Source of the DNA: Balanoglossus misakiensis
Taxonomy: Eukaryota; Animalia; Hemichordata
DNA length: 64,000 nt
Assembly (NCBI GenBank): GCA_040954595.2
Contig: CM082593.2
Coordinates: 7,476,043 to 7,540,042 of the forward strand
Direction of reading: 5' to 3'
A model generated the notes under the pieces. That model saw only the letters and a program-made list of their open reading frames with translations, was not told the DNA's origin and searched no databases. Each line of letters starts with the position of its first letter. The stretch's first letter is position 1. Of the stretch, positions 1,497-55,000 are shown piece after piece. A program made the translations under genes and the position numbers.

Positions 1497-1865
1497 GGAT
1501 ATTTTCAAAATAGTAACTTTTGACAAACTTTGTCTAGAAAATAAATATGAACGAACGCTACTTGAAAGGAAAACTTTCAAAAATAAATATAAATAAATAA
1601 ACATATTAGTATGGCTTAATTTACGGACGGAGTTCCATAATTATAAAGCGTAGTGCTACTGAAAGTTTTTTAAACTATTTAAAAGTTAAAAAAAATATGT
1701 TGTATGTTTTAAATATTCCTATATAAAGTTCACAGTTTATGCGAATGCAAAATTGCTTCTATTATTTAAAATAAATATGAAAATGTACTTTTTACTCGGT
1801 TTCCGACTGAATTTGCGGACAGTATTTTTTATCCTACGTATATTTCAAAACCTTAAATTGCAAAT

Positions 1866-2723
1866 TTAAACTCTTTCTCTCCCGCAAGTACAAGCCACTG
1901 CCAGCTTCACTGTGGTCGGTTCGTAGACATAAAACCCGTCAGAGTCACAAGCGCTGGTTTTCACTAAGACTGTCAGGTCAGCCGTGGTTATCTTCTCACA
2001 CCGCCATATTGGATGGTGGTCGCTGTTTTCCAGGAGATCCGTGATGCAGTTCGGACAATCGTAGCACTCGGCTTCAACCAGGGTTTGTGGGTAGCGGTCG
2101 GTATCTGTGTTTTCAACGTGGTAGTAAGGGCAGGTCGATCTGATTTCCAAAGGGGCGTCTGAACCGTAGGAAACCGGGCAGGTGGTCGATGAGGGCGGGC
2201 TGTAGGACCCAGGAGTGGTGGCAAACGAAAGAACATTTGGCGTGTACTGGTTCAGCTGGTCTTGTAAAGCGTCCTCGCTCGGCTGTTGGCAGTTGATTGG
2301 GTTACCATGGATACCACTCATGCTCGAAATGCCCAAAACGATGGCAATCTGGAAAAGATGTGCATTTGTCAGACGTTAACAAATGTTCGTGAACTACATG
2401 TGACAAAGGAAAATAACGCATGGCCAAAAGTCACAATTCTTGTTAAACTCTGCGCCTCTTCTAGTTTCATACAAAGCTTGACTTATTTTACTTGGCTAGC
2501 AACCCGTTGCTACGGTTATATACGAAGTCTCGCGAGATCTCGTAACGACTGGAAAATCATCTCTTGTGTTTATATCAATGATAGTGACTTGTTATACATT
2601 CAGTATTGCGTTATCCATAGATTTGTCAACTGAGCGAATGTATGTGATATTTCCTATAAAGACAACCTGTTGCGTGTGCTGGTCTTATAATATACTTACA
2701 AAGAATCCGTAAGCGCAGTCCAT
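1866..2723 (-). CDS. IL17: IL-17-like cytokine, gene 1 (exon 1 2700-2723 MDCAYGFF; exon 2 1866-2348; 168 aa)
   Basis: RSTCPYY..D.DRYPQTLVEAEC..C..C and C-terminal VACTC match the IL-17 cystine-knot signature (RSxxPW..DxxRYP..AxC..VGCTC). Hydrophobic signal peptide. gtaagt donor and ttttccag acceptor, phase 0. Confidence 0.88.
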
Positions 2724-4659: not shown

Positions 4660-4840
4660 AAGTTTATAAAACTTACACAGCGTTACTAAAACGTAACTGA
4701 CGATACATGACCATAAAGTTTTTTTAACGCGGTACACGTCAACCTGATTGAAACTTTGAGATATAACACCATTGTCCCACCAAGCTGAACGAAAATTGAA
4801 ACGCGAATGGTCATAGTAATATAGAACGCAATACTTGCGT
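4660..4840 (-). promoter_or_regulatory. Conserved structured 3'UTR module of IL-17 gene 2
   Basis: ACGCAAGUAUUGCGU (4826-4840); AUGACCAU/AUGGUCAU stem (4807-4814/4707-4714); GUUAC-GUUUUA-GUAAC (4682-4697); AAGUUU-UAU-AAACUU (4660-4674). Confidence 0.8.
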
Positions 4841-5177: not shown

Positions 5178-6049
5178 TTAAACTCTTTCTCTTCCACAAG
5201 TACAAGCCACTGCCAGTTTCACTGTGGTCGGTTCGTAGACATAAAACCCGTCAGAGTCACAAGCGCTGGTTTTCACTAAGACTGTCAGGTCAGCCGTGGT
5301 TATCTTCTCACACCGCCATATTGGATGGTGGTCGCTGTTTTCCAGGAGATCCGTGATGCAGTTTTGACAATCGTAGCACTCGGCTTCAACCAGGGTTTGT
5401 GGGTAGCGGTCGGTGTCTGTGTTTTCAACGTGGTAGTAAGGGCAGGTCGATCTGATTTCCAAGGGGGCGCCTGAACCATACGAAATTGGGCAGGTGGTCA
5501 ATGAGGGCGGGCTGTAGGACCCAGGAGTGGTGGCATACGAAAGAACATTTGGCGTGTACTGGTTCAGCTGGTCTTGTAAAGCGTCCTCGCTCGGCTGTTG
5601 ACAGTTGATTGGGTTACCATGGATACCACTGATACACCAGATGCACAAGACGGTAACAGCCTGGAAAAGTAGCATAAATGGGGGGTTAAAAGAGAACAAT
5701 TTGTTTGAACTCAGACAGCTACCGTAATTAACAACAACTAACAACCTAAGACCAGTAGACCTATCTTTCTCACGTTCGTCTCCTTCGGTGTGTATGTGAA
5801 CTGTGGGCGTCTGCAAATGACATCATTTTGATCATTGATATCAAGCGCTTTACGAAGTACTGTATTAGCAGTCTGTGGTATATACTATTATGATTGTGAT
5901 AGGTAAATGACTTCCACCACTTTTAATTGGCAAATTTATGTTATAATTGCCAATCAGTGAAATGCCCCAGAGGTCGGTGTGTATTTGCCGTGCTTTTGGC
6001 TGTTCCCGGGTAAAGTTATACTTACCAAAAGTCCGTAAGCAAAATCCAT
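5178..6049 (-). CDS. IL17: IL-17-like cytokine, gene 2 (exon 1 6026-6049 MDFAYGLL; exon 2 5178-5660; 168 aa)
   Basis: Near-identical mature region to gene 1. Exon 1 is homologous to gene 1 exon 1. Canonical GT-AG, phase 0. Confidence 0.88.
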
Positions 6050-7345: not shown

Positions 7346-9042
7346 CACACATAAACGATTCGGCAAACCATTTTAAATTTCTTATAACAAACAACAAACT
7401 CGCAAATACATTTTACAGTGTACCACTTCCCCCTTCCAATCGATAAGCTCGAACCTATCATGAAAAGAAATGGGTCTAATATTAACAGCCTGCATTAACG
7501 CGCTGTTCTCAAATCTTGTACGGTTGAAGCCTGCTTTGGCTTCTGGCTTTGATATGTAAAATACATGTGTGTTTTTTTGCGGTGCAGTCGATGTGCAAAA
7601 TACTAAATGAGTAAAGTAGTGACTAAGACAACCGCCCATTTGACCACGAGTCCTGTCAGAACAAAAGATTTCGACTATAGGTCCATGAATGTCAATGCCA
7701 TGGACCACAAATGTACTACATCGAGAGTTGGCCGTCAAATACACGAAGTCTGTTGTATGTACGTATGTGCGATAGGTGGGTATTCTGGGCTTATTTAGCT
7801 CTTAGGTGAGCATTTAGATCGGTGTAGTGAACAGTGAGTATAGCGTTGATCTAATATAAAACATCCGCTTCCTTTAAATAGAGAAGTACCTGAGTCTATC
7901 CGTATCGAGCGTTCCTGCAATAAAATGCTGAGCGGCAAATTTTACTGCAAATACCAAATAGTTGAAATTTTCACGCACTGTTTTTATGATACCACGGTGA
8001 CATTTTTACTGTACTACATGCGGAAGGTGTGTAGATAAAATTAATTGGCGTTTAGCAAGTTAACTTCCACAGAAAGTACATGTGATTGACATAGGTTGCC
8101 CATTGGATAATATCCCTTGCCGTTTTGAGATTTGCAGATTTTGGTGTTGTTAGTCCTTCCATGGATGAAACCAAGTCACATCCATCGCGGTCTCTGAATA
8201 CGTATTAGAAGTTTACAAGATCAAACTACACATACGCCAAACAAGAAATGAACAAGGCAAACACAAACAAACAAGATGCATGGTCAAATCTATTAAAGAC
8301 AGGGCGAGTAAGGTGAAGTTTCAAGGGTGTAAGCATTTAGTCTTGTCCCGCATGTGTGGGACCCGACATATTTCGAACTCAGACTATCCTTAACAGTTTT
8401 TGTGGCTATATATAAACTATTCAATCAGCATGCGTACGTAACATTTATATGCTGACCTCCGGTGTCATTTTAACACATACGTCTTCCGCTTTTCGATCTA
8501 GTGGTATGCATTTTTAGGCCATATTGAATCACGCGAAATCTTAATCACGCCATATTGAATCACGCGAAATCACGCCAAATTACGCGAGACTTCGAAATAA
8601 CGTTACGCGTTCTTTTTGAGCCTAAACGTTTAACCACAACAAGACTACCAACTCATATCGTCTCTTTTTGTAAAATAAACATTTTATTATGGTAATATCA
8701 CTACAAAAAATAAATGTTGTACTTCGGGTATCATAGCATACCGTGAAAACATTACAATATAAAATCAATAAGTTGCAAGTGGATACATGACTGGTGTGAA
8801 ACAGAATAATTAATATAAGGTTCCTTTAGACTCTGGAATACTTTGTTATCCCTTGAGTTTTTATTTTGCCATCTCAGCATAACCCTACTGCTAAAAATCT
8901 CAATTTGCCATAAATAAGGCGCTGAAAATAAAGATTCAATAAAATTAAAATAACTAATTAAAGTCTGAATTCAGTGGAAATCTAGTAAAAGGAATAAGTA
9001 TGTAGTTTGTTTTAAGAAGAGTTCAAACAGCGTAAGACGTAA

Positions 9043-9217
9043 TAAGTTTATAAAACTTACATCGACGTTACTTAAACGTAACTGACTTAATATGATCCCA
9101 AATCTAGCAGTTTGTTTGGAACACGGTGGAATTTACGTGTCTTTCCACGAAGCAATTGTACTTTCAAACGAAGCAGATTGGATCATATACAGTAAATTTG
9201 AACGCAATACTTGCGTT
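9043..9217 (-). promoter_or_regulatory. Conserved structured 3'UTR module of IL-17 gene 3
   Basis: AACGCAAGUAUUGCGUU (9201-9217); AUAUGAUCC/GGAUCAUAU (9180-9188/9090-9098); GUUAC-GUUUAA-GUAAC (9067-9082); UAAGUUU-UAU-AAACUUA (9043-9059). Confidence 0.8.
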
Positions 9218-9408
9218 GGTATTGTCAAAGTATTAAAAAATACATACAAAATGAATAAATAAAACAATAAATATTTAAGTTAGGGTATAAGATAGAAATA
9301 AACAGGTAAATAGTTTGCAATACTTCTCATCAGTCTCGTAAATTGATAATGTGGTCGTGGCTAAACTTGTGAACGATGACATTTTGGTTTTCTTGTATTA
9401 GAAAGGCT

Positions 9409-10131
9409 TTAAACTCTTTCTCTCCCGCAAGTACACGCCACTGCCAGTTTCACTGTGGTCGGTTCGTAGACATAAAACCCGTCAGAGTCACAAGCGCTGG
9501 TTTTCACTAAGACTGTCAGGTCAGCCGTGGTTATCTTCTCACACCGCCATATTGGATGGTGGTCGCTGCTTTCCAGGAGATCCGTGATGCAGTTCTGACA
9601 ATCGTAGCACTCGGCTTCAACCAGGGTTTGTGGGTAGCGGTCAGTGTCTTTGTTTTCAACGTGGTAGTAAGGGCAGGTCGATCTGATTTCCAAAGGGGCG
9701 CCTGAACCGTAGGAAACCGGGCAGGTGGTCGATGAGGGCGGGCTGTAGGACCCAGGAGTGGTGGCATACGAAAGAACATTTGGCGTGTACTGGTTCAGCT
9801 GGTCTTGTAAAGCGTCCTCGCTCGGCTGTTGGCAGTTGACTGGGTTACCATGGATACTGCCGATAACAGAAATGAGGACGATAGCTGCAACCTGTAGAGA
9901 GACAAATTTCATGAGTAAATCGAGATAGTATACAAAAACTCAATGGGTATCATTTGTGACATTTCGCAAACTAGTTTTTAGTGCAACGCAAGGCGATCTG
10001 GATTGTCAGATACTAGCGACAATGTTAAGTAACCTGTTTGAAAGAAACGCATTGTATGATATACAATTTCGCAATCTGTTATAAGTTATGTCGAAAATCT
10101 AACTTACTGAAATTCTGTAAATAAAATTCAT
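9409..10131 (-). CDS. IL17: IL-17-like cytokine, gene 3 (exon 1 10108-10131 MNFIYRIS; exon 2 9409-9891; 168 aa)
   Basis: IL-17 signature. gtaagt donor and ctctacag acceptor. TATATATA at 10231-10238, ~100 bp upstream of the ATG. Confidence 0.88.
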
Positions 10132-13772: not shown

Positions 13773-14703
13773 ATGGAATTTTTGTACCGATCATCAGTAA
13801 GTCATAATTACCGGCTAATGCTAAATGTTAACGCTTCTTGTGTTTTTGTGTGTGAGAGAGTGTGTTGTGGATTGGCCGGTTTAGTATGTTTCGGCCAATC
13901 TCAAACTCTGCGTTAAAATCTAGAACCTATAACAAGAATGTATGTCTTTCGTGGAAAACACTGGAAAAGGGAATTAAGTTCATTCAGTTTTACTTGCCGT
14001 TAAATCAGCTATAGTTTCCAGAACAGGACCACTAACTTGTCAGAAACAGAATCATAATTGAGCTGGCAATATAGTTTAATGCATCTGTGACAGTCTATTT
14101 TGTCTCAAATACCGAAGACATCTTCTGTTTTGATTGTTAGCGTCATGAGGATAGGTTTATATCTTTTAACATTTACACAAGTCACCTCATTATTAACAAA
14201 AAGAATTGTTCTGTCTACAGGTTGCAGCTATCTTCCTCATTTCTGTTATCGACAGTATCCATGGTAACCCAATCAACTGCCAACAGCCGAGCGAGGATGC
14301 TTTACAAGAGCAGCTGAACCAGTACACGCCAAATGTTCTTTCGTATGCCACCACTCCTGGGTCCTACAGCCCGCCCTCATCGACCACCTGCCCAATTTCG
14401 TATGGTTCAGGCGCCCCCTTGGAAATCAGATCGACCTGCCCTTACTACCACGTTGAAAACACAGACACCGACCGCTACCCACAAACCCTGGTTGAAGCCG
14501 AGTGCTACGATTGTCCGAACTGCATCACGGATCTCCTGGAAAGCAGCGACCACCATCCAATATGGCGGTGTGAGAAGATAACCACGGCTGACCTGACAGT
14601 CTTAGTGAAAACCAGCGCTTGTGACTCTGACGGGTTTTATGTCTACGAACCGACCACAGTGAAGCTGGCAGTGGCTTGTACTTGCGGGAGAGAAAGAGTT
14701 TAA
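13773..14703 (+). CDS. IL17: IL-17-like cytokine, gene 4 (exon 1 13773-13796 MEFLYRSS; exon 2 14221-14703; 168 aa)
   Basis: IL-17 signature. aaacATGG start, gtaagt donor, gtctacag acceptor. TATATAA at 13678-13684; AATAAA at 15308-15313. Confidence 0.88.
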
Positions 14704-14870: not shown

Positions 14871-14970
14871 TACTTATTTATTATTTATGAATTTATTTAA
14901 AATTATTGTGTTTGAAAAACTACACAAACAAAACATTTACAACATTGTACAATTATTTATTTATTTATAA
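14871..14970 (+). promoter_or_regulatory. AU-rich elements (clustered AUUUA) in the gene 4 3'UTR
   Basis: ttatttattatttatgaatttatttaa and ttatttatttatttataa. A similar tract lies on the - strand at 1581-1600 (gene 1). Confidence 0.55.
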
Positions 14971-15070: not shown

Positions 15071-15203
15071 GCGCAAGTATTGCGTAAATATTGCCATTTG
15101 ATTCTAGCCGAATGACATTTACTGGTTAAACCAAAAAAGTGTTCGTCCAGGGTCATGGAGTGTCAGTTACGTTTTAGTGACATTTATGTCAGTTTTAAAA
15201 ACT
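15071..15203 (+). promoter_or_regulatory. Conserved structured 3'UTR module of IL-17 gene 4
   Basis: GCGCAAGUAUUGCGU (15071-15085); AUGAC..GUCAU (15112-15116/15152-15156); GUUAC-GUUUUA-GUGAC (15166-15181); AGUUU-UAA-AAACU (15191-15203). The module is inverted together with the gene. Confidence 0.8.
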
Positions 15204-36105: not shown

Positions 36106-36249
36106 AGTTTTTAAAACTTACGAAGATAGATGTCACGAAAACGTAACTGACAATGTATGACCCAGGCAGTACATTTATGTCGACCAAGCGATCGAATAAT
36201 TCATTTACTATTGAGTCATATATATAAACTTGAACGCATTACTTGCGTT
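36106..36249 (-). promoter_or_regulatory. Conserved structured 3'UTR module of IL-17 gene 5
   Basis: AACGCA-AGUAA-UGCGUU (36233-36249); UAUGACUCA/UGGGUCAUA (36212-36220/36156-36164); GUUAC-GUUUUC-GUGAC (36132-36147); AGUUU-UAA-AAACU (36106-36118). Confidence 0.8.
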
Positions 36250-36514: not shown

Positions 36515-37837
36515 TTACACTCGCTCTCGTCCACAGGTACAAGCCACTGCCAGTTTCACTGTGGTAGGTTCGTAGACATAAAACCCGTCAGAGTCACAAG
36601 CGCTGGTTTTCACTAAGACGGTCAGGTCAGCCGTGGTTATCTTCTCACACCGCCATATTGGATGGAAGTCGGTGCTTTCTATCAGATCAGCAACGCAGTT
36701 CTGGCAGCTGTAGCACTCGGCTTCTACCAGGGTCGGTGGGTATCGCTCCGTGTCCGTGTTTTCCACTCTGTAGAACGGGCAAGTTGTTCGGATCTCCAAG
36801 GGGGCGCCCTGGCCGTAAGAAACCGGGCAGGTGGTCGATGAGGGCGCGCTGTATGAGCCGGGCGTTGCAGCGAACGAGAGGGCGTTTGGCACGTGCTGTT
36901 TCAACTGTGCGCGCAGGGCATCCGCGCTCGGTTGTAGGCAGTTCACCGGGTTGCCATGGATACCAATGATGTTAGAGATGCCAATAACGACAATCTGTAA
37001 AATAAAAACAATATGTGTATTTGAATTGTAACCCTGAAAAAGTGTATATTTGAAAATTAACTCTAAACATACATCATTACATGTTGACAGGCTAATTTAA
37101 ATAATTTGGTTCGCTCATAAAACGCCCTATAGGTTTAAGTCTGGCTGGGTTCAAGGGTTGATGATGATTCTTATCAATTTGCGCGTATATTAATACGATA
37201 GCATAATTTATAGACGTACCATAGATTACGTCACACGCTTCTTGTTTGCCGAGTTTCAACGATTAGAATACATGAATTATTGTTACACATCCTTGAACAA
37301 CTTCAAACAGGAACGAAAATGTCAAAAAGATAGAGACTGTCCTATATCTTGAAGTACGCGTCTCGAAAATCGTAGTCTTTGACGACGTTTCCTCATAATT
37401 TGCTCAAAGAAGCTTTAGATTATTTTCTCTGAGAATGAGAATTAAAAATAGGGGAGCCAAATTGACATAAATTTGAAATGGTGGCCAATCTCTGCGTTAA
37501 CTCTATACAGAAAAACTACAAGTGGTGTTTTTATGAAACCATGTTTTCTACTGTGATTTCAAAAAGACTAGTACTCCTCACACACTTTGATATAGCAAAG
37601 AATTGAAAGGTTTGGAGAACTATAGTTTTTAGCCTGCTGGTTGTAATGATTTCGATCAAGAAAATTTAGCTAATAATACAGGGAATATAAATAATTAAAA
37701 TAGTATAAAATTTACGGCTACTTTTCCTCTAAGACCCAGATTAATTGTGTAAACTTTTCTGTGGATTTCGTCATGATTTCTTATTAACAGGAACGTTTGA
37801 TACTCACCAAGGATAAAATTCTGCTTGCAAACTTCAT
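36515..37837 (-). CDS. IL17: IL-17-like cytokine, gene 5 (exon 1 37808-37837 MKFASRILSL; exon 2 36515-36994; 169 aa)
   Basis: More diverged paralog with all 10 mature Cys. gtgagt donor and ttttacag acceptor. TATATAAA at 37934-37941. Confidence 0.88.
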
Positions 37838-39595: not shown

Positions 39596-39793
39596 AAGTT
39601 TATGAAACTTACATTGATGTTACGAAAACGCAACCACCACGCACATTATGACCAATAACCGACGAAAATGTCGGTCACATTTGACTAGGCGGGCCTTGTA
39701 TGTATACCTGTGGTTGAATAATTCCAAATCGAAAACACACACTTCGTTTCGTGCCGCCTGGGTCATATAAACAGTGAGTGCAATACTTGCACT
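39596..39793 (-). promoter_or_regulatory. Conserved structured 3'UTR module of IL-17 gene 6
   Basis: AGUGCAAGUAUUGCACU (39777-39793); UAUGACC/GGUCAUA (39761-39767/39647-39653); GUUGC-GUUUUC-GUAAC (39619-39634); AAGUUU-CAU-AAACUU (39596-39610). Confidence 0.8.
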
Positions 39794-43275: not shown

Positions 43276-43325
43276 AAGTTTATAAAACTTACTGTGACGT
43301 TACAGAACGTAACTGACTAAGTATG
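43276..43325 (-). promoter_or_regulatory. Truncated 3'UTR module of IL-17 gene 7 (last two hairpins only)
   Basis: GUUAC-GUUCU-GUAAC (43299-43313); AAGUUU-UAU-AAACUU (43276-43290). Confidence 0.72.
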
Positions 43326-47447: not shown

Positions 47448-48013
47448 TAAGAACCGTGTAAATGCCTATCTAAGAACCTTCATGATCGGCCACGTGTATA
47501 AAATCGTATTTAAGAACCTTGATGATCGGCCACGTGTATAAAATCGTATTTATGAATCTTGATGATCGGCCATGTGTATAAAATCGTATTTAAGAACCTT
47601 GATGATCGACCACGTGTATAAAATCGTATTTATGAACCTTGATGATCGGCCACGTGTATAAAATCGTATCTAAGAACCTTGATGATCGACCACGTGTATA
47701 AAATCGTATTTATGAATCTTGATGATCGGCCACGTGTATAAAATCGTATTTAAGAACCTTGATGATCGACCACGTGTATAAAATCCTATGTAAGAACATT
47801 GATGATCGGCCCCGTGTATAAAATCCTATCTAGTAAGAACCTTGGTGATCGGCCCCGTGTATAAAATCCTATCTAAGAACCTTGATTATCGAACACGTGT
47901 ATAAAATCGTATCTAAGAACCTTGATGATCGACCACGTGTATAAAATCCTATCTAAGAACCTTGATTATGTCGGCCATGTATGAAAATGCCTATTTAAGA
48001 ACCTTGGTGATTT
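47448..48013. repeat. 40-bp minisatellite, ~13-14 copies
   Basis: Unit TAAGAACCTTGATGATCGGCCACGTGTATAAAATCGTATT (starts at 47471, 47511, ...). Confidence 0.95.
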
Positions 48014-51000: not shown

Positions 51001-51553
51001 TCTCTAAGAAAACAACCGACACGACAAATGTAAAGTGGAAATGCCAGCTCATATTTCACACCAGTCAGGGTGACTGAAGTGATGATCAGCGCTACCTACG
51101 GTGGAAATCGCGACGCCTTTTAATTAACACAGGCCAGGCAATGCGCATCACTGTCCCTATTCATGTATATGAAAGTTCCCACGCACTACGCATGTTCATT
51201 GTTATGTTAATCATATTCATCTGAAATATGACGGTAGGCGTAACTGTAGTGTTTTCATCACGATGCTTGATATTTTCCAGCCAGTCCGAACCGTTACACA
51301 TACGTGGATGAATCCGGACCGATAGGGAAGACATGAGGGTTAATGTTTAACCGCGGCTATCGGAAAAAAAACGTGTAGTCTGCGTTAAACATATTTAATC
51401 ACATACATGTATTGTATGTACGTACGCTCACCTTTCAACATGGCTGCTCGGGTGATAACAGTGATCAGGTGGTCGGCCTCTGTTTATCTCGACGAAAACT
51501 GATACTGCTGCTTGTTGTTGTTGTTGTCGCCGTCACGTGTGACATTGGCCAAG

Positions 51554-52038
51554 ATGATGAACGCCCTGTCCTCACCTGAGATCCGCGGCTCCGCTAGGTT
51601 TTCGTGGCCGCGGGCCGCGCCGCCGCCGAGAGCGCGCACGAAGCGGATGAGCGCTGGCCCCGCCACTGACGAGAAGCAGGCCGAGAGAGAAGTAACGCTG
51701 CAGGTTCAAAACGCCAACCCGCCCGCGGATGTATCGGTGCAGGCGTTCTACCTCACCTACATGGTGCACACGGCCAGGGCCATCCAACGGGCGATACTGC
51801 AGCGGATCAGCAAATCGGGCGCCGTCCCCAAAGTGAGGATGGTGCGAAGCGACCCCTCGCAGGACGCGGACAGCTTGTGGGCTGACATACTCTGCCAAAC
51901 CCTGGACAGCTACACCCATCTGGTTCACCAGTACGCCAACGGACAGCTCAAGCGCAAACTTGAAGGGGAATTGAAGAAATTCGATTACCGGGAAAAGTTG
52001 AATTTAATACTTCTGGGACACGAACACATCACCGTTAG
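51554..52038 (+). CDS. Probable first coding exon of a multi-exon gene; possible TRADD-N-like domain
   Basis: GC-rich ORF with GC3-biased codons in an AT-rich background. aagATGATG start with an upstream in-frame stop; ends at AG|gtaagt (phase 2). The domain call is recalled pattern similarity only. Confidence 0.65.
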
Positions 52039-55000
52039 GTAAGTCCCTAAACAGAAAAAAGATGGAGTCCCCGGCCACGTCTATTTGATTGTACGCTGCC
52101 AATACGTTCAAAAAGCAACTTACAATAGGCATTTGGGGTTTAGCCCTACAAACACCCCCTGCAAACAAAGCCCTGACTGTCGAGCAAATAAATGGGTCCT
52201 TGTTTTGTTGTTCGAGACCTCAAATAAACCCACTTTTCGTTTCTGAATATTTTCTCAAGGATGACAGAGCTGTTGACCTCAATTAAAACAATACCCGGCA
52301 GGGCATGATCATGTTTTGGGAGACGTCCGCGGGCTGTACCGCCTTCAGTTTATGCACCGCTATCTGCAAACGACATGACGTAATTCGATAATCTCGGATT
52401 GTCTGTACATGTCCACGCAGCATCGCCATCAAAACCTGCTATCGAAAACTATTGAAAATACTCAATGCTCTTAACTACTTAAGGGACATAAAATTCCTGA
52501 CGTCAATTTCCAGAAACGCACTTTTTTAAAATCAAAGATCCTACCGCCAAAGAGATTCGCGGGGAAATTTACCCAAATGTTTGTCTCACCAACTTACAGT
52601 CAATGTTTAATGACAAACGGTAGATGTGGGCAAAACATAAATAATCTGTAGTTTGGCGTGCTGTCAATACTAATACCTTCTCTGAAATGGTAGATGGTCG
52701 AACACTGAGGGGTCATGGGAAGGGATGCGAGCCCGCTTCGGTCCCGCCAAATTACTGCGATGAGATCTTTCAACCGAACGATTAACAAAGACAAAATCGA
52801 AGCCCTCTAATGGAACCAAAATTGCCCGTCACCATAAATTTCAGAGAAGAAAGGAAAAACAGGTCGTTCATGTCGGCCCGTTAATCTTTTAAACCCCACA
52901 CGACAATAGGGGTCCCAGTAATTGCGTTGAACTGCCATTAAAATCGGCTGGCTGTATAACGGTCCGATCACGTGACCGCCACCGTGAGTGAACATTTTGC
53001 AGGTGGTCCCATCAAACAAATTATCGAGTCAGAAACCCATTCCCTTTTTTTCCAATTGTCACATTATATCGGTAAACATTTCACACGAATCTTAATAGTC
53101 TCTGTTCTTGAACCACCTTGGAATGTATTACATGGTTTTGGTGATGACTTACTTCAGTATATATCGCTCTTAATAGAATGTTTGTTCATATGAAAAGCTA
53201 GGAATGGCAGCTGAAACAGCCGATAATAGAACATGGGGAAAAGACTGACTATAATGTAATAACGACGCATAAATGCTTCAGACCCAGGAGACTCAGAGCC
53301 ATTATGCACTGGAAGGTTGGCTTAGGGGTTGACCATTTGATATTCGGGAGGGGAGGGCTGGAAGATTCTTAAAAATGTTACCAGCCAACTGCGAAAAAAT
53401 GTTTGCCTTTGCAGTCCAACAGAAAAAATATTCAAGGGAGGCTGAACAAATTGCTGTGGCAAATCCTACGTCACAGTGGTATAAAAGGTTTTGTTTCCGA
53501 ACAGTTCCCCCGCCTCGCCACAACCAATATCAAATGGGTTGCCCCTAAGACGCACAAGCAGGATTTCGGCGATGTGTATAGAAAAGGGGAAATATTCTAA
53601 AAGCAGAGACAAACGGCAAACAAGGAGGCTGAGAACACAGGCAGAGCAAATATACGGCGTGGGGGCGTGGTCAAATTCGCGGACTATAAAACCAGACATT
53701 CCCACGAGGCCATTGCATTAACTTGTCACGATATTTGCCAAAACGATACCAAAATATTTACCACGTGAACTGCGCGTGAGTTCGGCTCTCCCCAAGTTTA
53801 CCTCGACGATGCTATCACGTATAGCCAATTATTAGACATAACATCATCTATTAGGAGTCGATAACCCACTTTTCGCTGATAATGGATCGTAACAGGTTAT
53901 CAACTCACAAGAATTGAGTACAAAAGGTTATTATTAGGCGTTGCTTAGTCTGAAATGATCTGAACCAAGGCCTCGGGGTACTTTTTTATGTCGTTGTCTT
54001 CATTTCATAGGATATCATTAAATTTTACACCGACTGCCTACAAACCACGCCTTTTAACAATATAAGCCGTGTCGATCGATAGTGACATGATCAAACCACA
54101 TATTGACTTATCGGTGTAGAAAACATCAGGCAAATTCAAATTCCAACTACAAAGCTATCAACAATAACCCATCACATCGTAGTGCCGATTGTTGGGTGCC
54201 TGAACATGCCTGGAAAATCATTTCTGGAATATGCACATTCTCTCTTCAGAAAAAAAAATTGCATATTGAACAAGAGGCCATTAGTTGCACTGGATACCGA
54301 ATACATGTATACACGTATCCCACTGTCCCATACGCAGCCCACGTCCCCCATACGCTGCCCATGGCCCCATACGCTGCCATACCACCCGCTTCTCGATATG
54401 TGCACGGGAGCGGTGACGTCATCGGTGCACGGGAGATGCTGAGTCAGCGCTCTTGTTAAAATATACGAGACCGATAACAAAACTGATGGAGGAATACTGT
54501 AAATTTCATATTATGATTATGATTTACACACTGTTGGTTGTTGTTGGCGGTATTGTGCGACAGGGCCAGGTGTGTCCCGGGTATGCATTTGAAAATGTGC
54601 CTTTTCATCATATAGCTGTCTTTCCCACCACAATGCAATGCTAGCCGCTCAATCGATTCATTACAGTATAATAACGCTTATACCAATTCCATTAATGTGT
54701 AATTGACACTAATTAGGGATGTCTTCCAATTACAAACGTCACATTAGCCCAGATAAAGGAACGGAATTGCGATGAGCTGGTTCATTATTATGTACTGCCC
54801 GTAGAAAACGAACGCGTGGTGACAGGCAAGCAAACGTGGCACTTTCAACTTAATCTTTGATGTATTGCATTGATGGCAGTTTGTTAGACCGATTGCATTA
54901 TTTATCACCAAAGTGCAGCCGCCATTTCTCTCTTTACATTATTTGATCTAAATGATTCAATAATCAATGAATAAAGTAATTTTGAAATTGAGTTGTATGG

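Follow-up and report, generated by a model that had tools for sequence, protein, structure and literature searches.

The window, which is the whole 64,000-nucleotide stretch of Balanoglossus misakiensis DNA analysed here, carries seven paralogous two-exon genes in which the IL-17 domain is encoded by the second exon. The coding sequences end at positions 1869, 5181 and 9412 for genes 1 to 3, which are on the minus strand, at 14700 for gene 4, on the plus strand, and at 36518, 40382 and 43838 for genes 5 to 7, on the minus strand. Both IL-17 genes that were tested, two of the seven, match the Pfam model PF06083, with an E value of 7e-12 for exon 2 of gene 3. This exon (9409-9891, minus strand), whose acceptor was placed from the sequence, encodes the mature cytokine through the stop codon, and the coding part of the predicted first exon (10108-10131, minus strand; sequence prediction) consists of an ATG and seven codons followed by a GT donor. 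Genes 1 and 2 have the motif GGGATTTCCC, presumably a kB-type site, about 360 nucleotides upstream of the ATG, in keeping with inducible genes, and the motif has no match in four of the seven IL-17 genes. The closest IL-17 proteins are those of Ptychodera flava (69%) and Glandiceps talaboti (56%), the only two matches when 12 candidates were searched, and tandem IL-17 arrays of hemichordates are already on record in PMC8353272.

Genes 4 and 5 converge on a 20-kb satellite array (15647-35907), in which an 88-bp unit is repeated about 229 times (93% matches) and which starts a few hundred bases beyond the poly(A) hexamers of both genes. A 40-bp tandem repeat of 13.5 copies is found at 47467-48011, and an open frame of 179 codons on the plus strand (51503-52039), which has a higher GC content and no Pfam match, is possibly an exon of a neighbouring gene. 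Pfam has no match for eleven other long open frames of the window.

The mature-peptide coding sequences of genes 1 to 4 (1869-2310, 5181-5622, 9412-9853 and 14260-14700) are 97-98% identical and differ at 1-9% of fourfold sites, unlike the signal peptide, the intron and the UTR of the same genes, which have all diverged. Because the high identity begins near the end of the signal peptide and ends at the stop codon, it looks like gene conversion limited to the mature-cytokine coding sequence. In all 21 pairs of paralogs, alignments of the introns, of the first 150 nucleotides after the stop codon and of the 100 nucleotides after hairpin D, described below, are at the level of shuffled sequence, and paralog UTR identity is 0.45-0.57 versus 0.47-0.52 after shuffling. 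An in-frame AG further on shifts the intron of gene 6 by about 20 nucleotides, which should leave the identity result unaffected. A tree of the seven coding sequences has support for none of its four inner branches.

Hairpin D of gene 3 (9043-9059, minus strand) is a CDE-type element with a 7-bp Watson-Crick stem and a UAU loop, whose closing pair has a predicted probability of 0.60-0.74, and its sense strand reads TAAGTTT-TAT-AAACTTA (RNA UAAGUUU-UAU-AAACUUA). The pattern AGTTTNNNAAACT, which describes the AGTTT-NNN-AAACT core, matches the window eight times versus 0.17 expected and a largest count of two in 100 shuffles, an excess that measures conservation and not seven independent events, since the seven D copies are homologous. 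Each IL-17 gene contributes one positional homologue, seven in all. The remaining match (1664-1676, in the UTR of gene 1) was set aside, being at a non-homologous position and having the loop AAA on the sense strand. On the minus strand, the other copies of D are found in gene 1 (1323-1335, UAU loop, 5 bp), gene 2 (4661-4673, UAU, 6 Watson-Crick bp and two G-U pairs), gene 5 (36106-36118, UAA, 5 bp), gene 6 (39597-39609, CAU, 6 Watson-Crick bp) and gene 7 (43277-43289, UAU, 6 Watson-Crick bp), and on the plus strand in gene 4 (15191-15203, UAA, 5 bp).

The first-pass annotation of this DNA had described an AGUUU/AAACU stem that is invariant in the seven genes, and this is borne out, all ten stem columns being identical in the seven paralogs; the loops it assigned, UAU in genes 1, 2, 3 and 7, CAU in gene 6 and UAA in genes 4 and 5, are also correct. 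It had placed D some 7-13 nucleotides past hairpin C, and the gap is indeed short, with a lower bound that has to be raised, since the cores are separated by 8-13 nucleotides (12, 8, 9, 9, 13, 9 and 9 in genes 1 to 7). The contiguous Watson-Crick stem measures 5, 6, 7, 5, 5, 6 and 6 bp in genes 1 to 7, and 5, 8, 8, 5, 5, 7 and 7 bp when G-U pairs are included. Across the seven genes, 10 of 10 columns are invariant in the D stem, 1 of 3 in its loop, 0 of 10 in the C-D spacer and 0 of 18 downstream, in an alignment anchored on the D motif, on which a Fisher test overstates the case. Position 2 of the loop is always A, position 1 is U or C and position 3 is U or A, and these are changes that the CDE mutagenesis of PMC6294493 finds tolerable.

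Invariance extends to the GU directly 5' of the D stem, for which no pairing partner is common to all the genes. Both C and D are preceded by GU(A/C)A (in gene 3, 9083-9086 and 9058-9060, minus strand) and begin with the same pairs, G-C, U-A and U-A, and GUMAGUU occurs at six of the seven C sites and at all seven D sites. This shared base would mean either that D was duplicated from C or that both stem bases are recognised by a single factor. Genes 4 and 5 (15162-15203 and 36106-36151) share two changes of the module, a U-G wobble in C and the UAA loop in D, and they are 85% identical in the module block and 81% identical in coding sequence, gene 4 being close to genes 1 to 3 in the latter. 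The UAA loop of both genes is likely to come from a single event, and the UTR and coding histories of these two genes seem to differ.

Neither AATAAA nor ATTAAA is present between the stop codon and D in any of the seven genes, and the first poly(A) hexamer is found 32-197 nucleotides after the start of D in all of them. In gene 3 this is the AATAAA at 8860-8865 (minus strand), the first past the stop codon, which is the predicted polyadenylation signal and is 3' of D. In base-shuffled sequence, a hexamer-free segment from the stop codon to D arises with a chance of 0.17-0.39 per gene, the product of which is 6.5e-5 if the genes are taken as independent. D is presumed to be within the 3' UTR of the IL-17 mRNAs, as part of a module, A to D, that is about 200-790 nucleotides downstream of the stop codon. 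The UTR of gene 4 has 11 AUUUA pentamers in 1100 nucleotides, with an overlapping cluster at UTR positions 255-267 (14876-14967, plus strand), and these may supply ARE-type decay in a gene whose D is weak. The UTR of gene 1 (1503-1870, minus strand) contains three further YRN-loop hairpins of 5-7 bp with the loops UGC, UAG and UGA, which are not conserved in the other IL-17 genes.

Hairpin D is the last unit of this four-part module, which is made of hairpin A, helix B, hairpin C and hairpin D. Hairpin C of gene 3 (9067-9082, minus strand) has a 5-bp stem and the hexaloop GUUUAA, an ADE variant loop. Its other copies are in gene 1 (1348-1363, GUUUUU), gene 2 (4682-4697, GUUUUA), gene 5 (36132-36147, GUUUUC), gene 6 (39619-39634, GUUUUC) and gene 7 (43299-43313, GUUCU pentaloop), all on the minus strand, and in gene 4 (15166-15181, GUUUUA) on the plus strand. 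The C stem has five contiguous pairs in all seven genes, fewer than the at least six that the ADE rule sets under a hexaloop, and its two changes are both to G-U on the sense strand. The loop begins with GUUY in 7/7 genes, and it is GUUYUA or a variant accepted in sRBNS only in genes 2 and 4 (GUUUUA) and 3 (GUUUAA), the loops of genes 1, 5, 6 and 7 being off the published list. In genes 5 and 6, folding predictions (p 0.91-0.99) shrink the GUUUUC loop to a tetraloop closed by a G-C pair, and the same loop-to-tetraloop change abolished ROQ binding in the Ox40 mutant A14C (PMC5603727). Gene 6 alone has an extra hairpin (39658-39675, minus strand) inside helix B, with a 6-bp stem, the hexaloop AUUUUC, which is an NFKBID-type ADE variant, and a closing-pair probability of 1.0. 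It is the only element that combines at least six pairs with an accepted hexaloop, and it possibly replaces the collapsed C loop of this gene.

When D, C and the extra hairpin are counted together, all the genes but gene 5 have one or more loops predicted to be acceptable to ROQ, which is only suggestive, given seven related genes. A tandem ADE-plus-CDE arrangement had been proposed from the first reading of the sequence; this is only partly borne out, as the C loop is an accepted one in three of seven genes and a good C loop coincides with a good D loop in no genes other than 2 and 3.

Helix B is a long-range helix, formed in gene 3 (9092-9186, minus strand) by the arms AUGAUCC and GGAUCAU around an 83-nucleotide insert. 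Six of the seven genes have 5-9 contiguous Watson-Crick pairs from the anchor of B, with inserts of 33-107 nucleotides, and there is one compensatory pair, C-G to U-A, in gene 3. Hairpin A, which in gene 3 (9201-9217, minus strand) has a 7-bp stem and a GUA loop that is not a CDE loop, is present in six of the seven genes and has double-sided changes in two of its seven pairs, a modest covariation whose score is reached by 20 of 500 shuffles. The loop of A, GUA or AGUAW, is conserved and outside both the CDE and the ADE rules, and the hairpin, which has the best covariation of the module, is a candidate Regnase-1 cleavage hairpin or a site of another factor. In gene 7, hairpin A was not found and the arms of B are not recognisable.

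By the definition in PMC6294493, a CDE has a YRN loop, ideally YAU, on a stem of 6-8 Watson-Crick pairs, stems of 5 bp being weaker, and the mutagenesis of the same work reports U as the best base at loop position 3 and some activity for YRN. In the sRBNS results of PMC11609897, YRU is the sole significantly enriched triloop class, along with AAU weakly, and no tetraloops or pentaloops are enriched; the accepted hexaloops of this source include GUUUAA and AUUUUC, and its Table 1 gives a binding value of 39 nM for GUUUAA when the HOMEZ stem carries it. The Regnase-1 rule, as cited in PMC5603727 and PMC5934641, is a 3-7-bp stem with a Py-Pu-Py triloop. The assignment of D to a CDE/Regnase-1-type triloop, made in the first-pass annotation, fits these rules. 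Its loop is YRN in 7/7 genes and YRU in 5/7, including 9043-9059, and the full CDE consensus of 6-8 Watson-Crick pairs and a YRN loop is found in four genes (2, 3, 6 and 7), while genes 1, 4 and 5 have 5 bp. The Regnase-1 rule describes five of the seven copies, including that of gene 3, and genes 4 and 5 depart from it at loop position 3. In the seven UTRs there are four YRU loops on stems of at least 6 bp, whereas 200 shuffles average 0.275 and never exceed 3, and 61,800 nucleotides of window background contain three such hairpins; the four are homologous copies of D and not four independent events.

The expectation that the UAA loops of genes 4 and 5 are weaker agrees with both the mutagenesis (PMC6294493) and the sRBNS data (PMC11609897); their 5-bp stems are a second weakening feature, and D is predicted to be weak in these two genes. 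Roquin is reported to read the shape of the stem and not its sequence, so the full invariance of the D stem exceeds what the Roquin model needs. The stems of NFKBIZ SL4 are also fully conserved in mammals (PMC5934641). Invertebrates have one Roquin gene according to PMC11172303, which analyses amphioxus and whose main text does not mention hemichordates.

The closing pair of D has probabilities of 0.64, 0.58, 0.60, 0.10, 0.66, 0.34 and 0.19 in whole-UTR folds of genes 1 to 7 at 37 C. Known CDEs have folding probabilities of 15-98%, with 6% for UCP3 CDEI and a cut-off of 5% (PMC6294493), and D is above this cut-off in 7/7 whole-UTR folds at 37 C, although the measure used here is the closing-pair probability and the published cut-off refers to the loop probability. 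Folding of the module by itself at 25 C gives probabilities of 0.12 in genes 4 and 6 and 0.00 in gene 7, and the value is 0.06 in gene 4 at 20 C. The stability of the isolated 27-nucleotide D hairpin is unremarkable (z -1.78, equalled in 11 of 200 shuffles), and the pairing measures of D do not beat the shuffle control. Its five core pairs never vary and there are no double-sided compensatory changes, and invariant pairs are uninformative on folding, so the fold of D is predicted and not demonstrated by its pairs. The support for RNA structure comes from its neighbours, namely A, B and the G-U changes in C. ROQ folds the AU-pure UCP3 CDE1, which is unstructured on its own (PMC7367199), so taking a single-stranded signal from the free D segment in chemical probing as a refutation, as had been proposed with the original assignment, is too strict.

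Hairpin D resembles the Roquin CDEs of the TNF, UCP3 and CSF3 3' UTRs by its YAU/YRN triloop and its AU-rich stem with a 3' purine run (PMC6294493, PMC11609897), by its presumed 3' UTR position and by its inflammatory-cytokine host. It has the stem polarity of the TNF CDE (PMC5303829), with a basal G-C pair, then a run of U-A pairs, and purines on the 3' side. Unlike these elements, three of its seven copies have five contiguous pairs, two of seven have UAA loops, the closing pair is U-A, the GU 5' flank is invariant and the host is not a vertebrate. The Ox40 mRNA also has a C-G-closed GUUY hexaloop hairpin 5' of a triloop hairpin, and its ADE and CDE cooperate (PMC5603727). The acorn worm module differs from it in having an accepted C loop in only three of seven genes, a C stem of five contiguous base pairs and two more conserved helices, A and B, upstream. 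In NFKBIZ and NFKBID several conserved stem-loops act jointly and end in UAU triloops (PMC5934641, bioRxiv 10.1101/2025.09.19.677199, PMC11609897). As in NFKBIZ, one stem is fully conserved in sequence, and as in NFKBID there is an AUUUUC hexaloop, that of gene 6. The NFKBIZ element starts at the stop codon, unlike the module described here, which is distant from it, has a long-range helix and belongs to a ligand mRNA, and the likeness to NFKBIZ and NFKBID drawn here is one of layout. In Caenorhabditis elegans, ets-4 encodes a transcription factor. Its mRNA has an ADE and an RCE, which are, like C and D, adjacent hairpins of an endogenous invertebrate transcript, both are needed for ets-4 silencing, and the partner hairpin of this ADE, unlike D, is a cleavage element (PMC9371910).

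The consensus fit makes it probable, at roughly 60%, that D is a CDE-type triloop bound by Roquin that speeds the decay of IL-17 mRNA. D would fold, perhaps transiently, into the triloop, which would be captured by the ROQ domain, and, judging from vertebrate, fly and worm work, the capture would recruit CCR4-NOT and lead to deadenylation, decay and transient expression. The Roquin protein of flies recruits CCR4-NOT and represses a reporter that carries the TNF CDE (PMC5303829), and in worms RLE-1 binds the ADE and acts with REGE-1 via two adjacent hairpins (PMC9371910). D would add to a repression by A, B and C in which weak elements sum, like those of Ox40, NFKBID and NFKBIZ, and Regnase-1 would be a likely partner of Roquin on the module. 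Two reviews or introductions list IL-17 mRNA as a mammalian Regnase-1 target, and the table of PMC7582464 names the IL-17 receptors and not the ligand. The strength of the copies would be graded, from genes 2 and 3 as the strongest, with good C and D loops, to gene 5 as the weakest, with neither.

The module could instead be mainly a hub for Regnase-1 cleavage, NFKBIZ-like, in which stems and spacing are read, the cut is made in A, B or C, D is an accessory and its loop is of minor importance. The stem sequence and the C-D spacing of 8-13 nucleotides are indeed better kept than the loops, and C persists in four genes with loops that are unlikely to bind ROQ. According to the preprint bioRxiv 10.1101/2025.09.19.677199, Regnase-1 reads stems and positions, and a change of the NFKBIZ UAU loop to GAAA has a modest effect on cleavage, which means that neutral loop mutations of D would not refute a role of Regnase-1. 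NFKBIZ SL4 and SL5 act only together, in an order- and distance-sensitive manner (PMC5934641), and the worm ets-4 mRNA pairs its ADE with a REGE-1 cleavage hairpin (PMC9371910). This emphasis on cleavage is nevertheless unlikely to be right, given that the positions read by ROQ are kept, with a 3-nucleotide D loop with a central A and a GUUY start of C in 7/7 genes each, and that gene 6 carries an extra ADE-type hairpin where its C loop collapsed. It may also be compatible with the reading of D as a Roquin CDE, the two not being exclusive.

The invariant GU before D, which the CDE model leaves unexplained, can be accommodated if the selected feature is the linear GUAAGU on the 5' arm of D, a U1 snRNP site or 3' UTR splice donor that limits expression by a polyadenylation block or nonsense-mediated decay and that is masked by the hairpin. 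GU(A/C)AGU is present at 7/7 D sites, a similar GU(C/A)AGU precedes C in 6/7, and the D sites match the 9-nucleotide splice-donor consensus at 6-7 positions, like the seven true intron donors of the IL-17 genes, in what is a crude match. Such a donor is quite improbable, as it leaves the invariant 3' arm AAACU, the loop pattern and A, B and C unexplained, has a C at position +3 in D of gene 4 and in five C sites, lacks G at -1 in 7/7 copies (as do 3/7 real donors) and has no acceptor-like conservation downstream of D. C and D might also be DNA elements instead of RNA structures, namely palindromes bound by dimeric transcription factors within an enhancer downstream, for the D core is a perfect inverted repeat that has no wobble or compensatory change and folds on either strand. 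This is highly improbable, because both stem changes in C and a U-A/U-G change in the extension of D give G-U pairs on the sense strand only, helix B covaries across an insert of variable length, 33-107 nucleotides, and the block always precedes the first poly(A) hexamer. There is likewise only a very slight chance that the block is functionless and has stayed alike passively, through recent duplication or gene conversion. Homogenisation seems to be active in the cluster, as the near-identity of the mature coding sequences of genes 1 to 4 indicates, but this near-identity ends at the stop codon. Pairwise identity in the C-D block is just 70-88%, and what differs is the spacers and loops, not the stems, which makes selection a better reading than conversion. 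Hairpin D is real and conserved, and it is most likely functional; the reading of it as a Roquin-bound CDE is kept in what follows.

Rfam has only two sub-threshold chance matches over 8900-9420, no solved structure matches the sequence at an E value of 0.001, the C+D pattern has no match in metagenome contigs, and a match of 17 residues from a scan of proteins was set aside. The covariance model built from C+D finds only the seven copies on which it was trained, a weak hit at 1632-1694 (E 0.015) and two others with E above 1. A full-text search, outside whose reach most subscription papers lie, has among its listed titles and abstract openings none on hairpins in invertebrate IL-17 3' UTRs, and the term UTR is absent from the main text of the invertebrate IL-17 papers checked, PMC5457136 and PMC4517768 among them. 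The main text of PMC9371910, on ets-4, does not contain CDE as a whole word. The element class, the layout of an ADE with a triloop hairpin and an invertebrate ADE target, ets-4, are already known, and the mechanism itself has precedent. The novelty would lie in the host, an endogenous invertebrate cytokine mRNA that carries a conserved multi-hairpin module of Roquin/Regnase type.

A broader proposal, which is tentative and somewhat doubtful, is that A, B, C and D form a decay hub for Roquin and Regnase-1 on the IL-17 mRNA of a non-chordate deuterostome, in an Ox40-like order of hexaloop before triloop, so that the shut-off of cytokines through RNA hairpins would predate adaptive immunity and the paralogs would be graded mainly in half-life. 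If so, UAU versus UAA in D and GUUUUA versus GUUUUC in C would be a natural allelic series, in a cluster in which four mature proteins are near-identical. The discussion of PMC11730611 tentatively dates the origin of stable, high-affinity ADEs to that of adaptive immunity, and this suggestion would be weakened further if the hexaloop-plus-triloop pair of the acorn worm IL-17 genes works. The seven natural variants also let the rules on loops and stems be tested within one genome.
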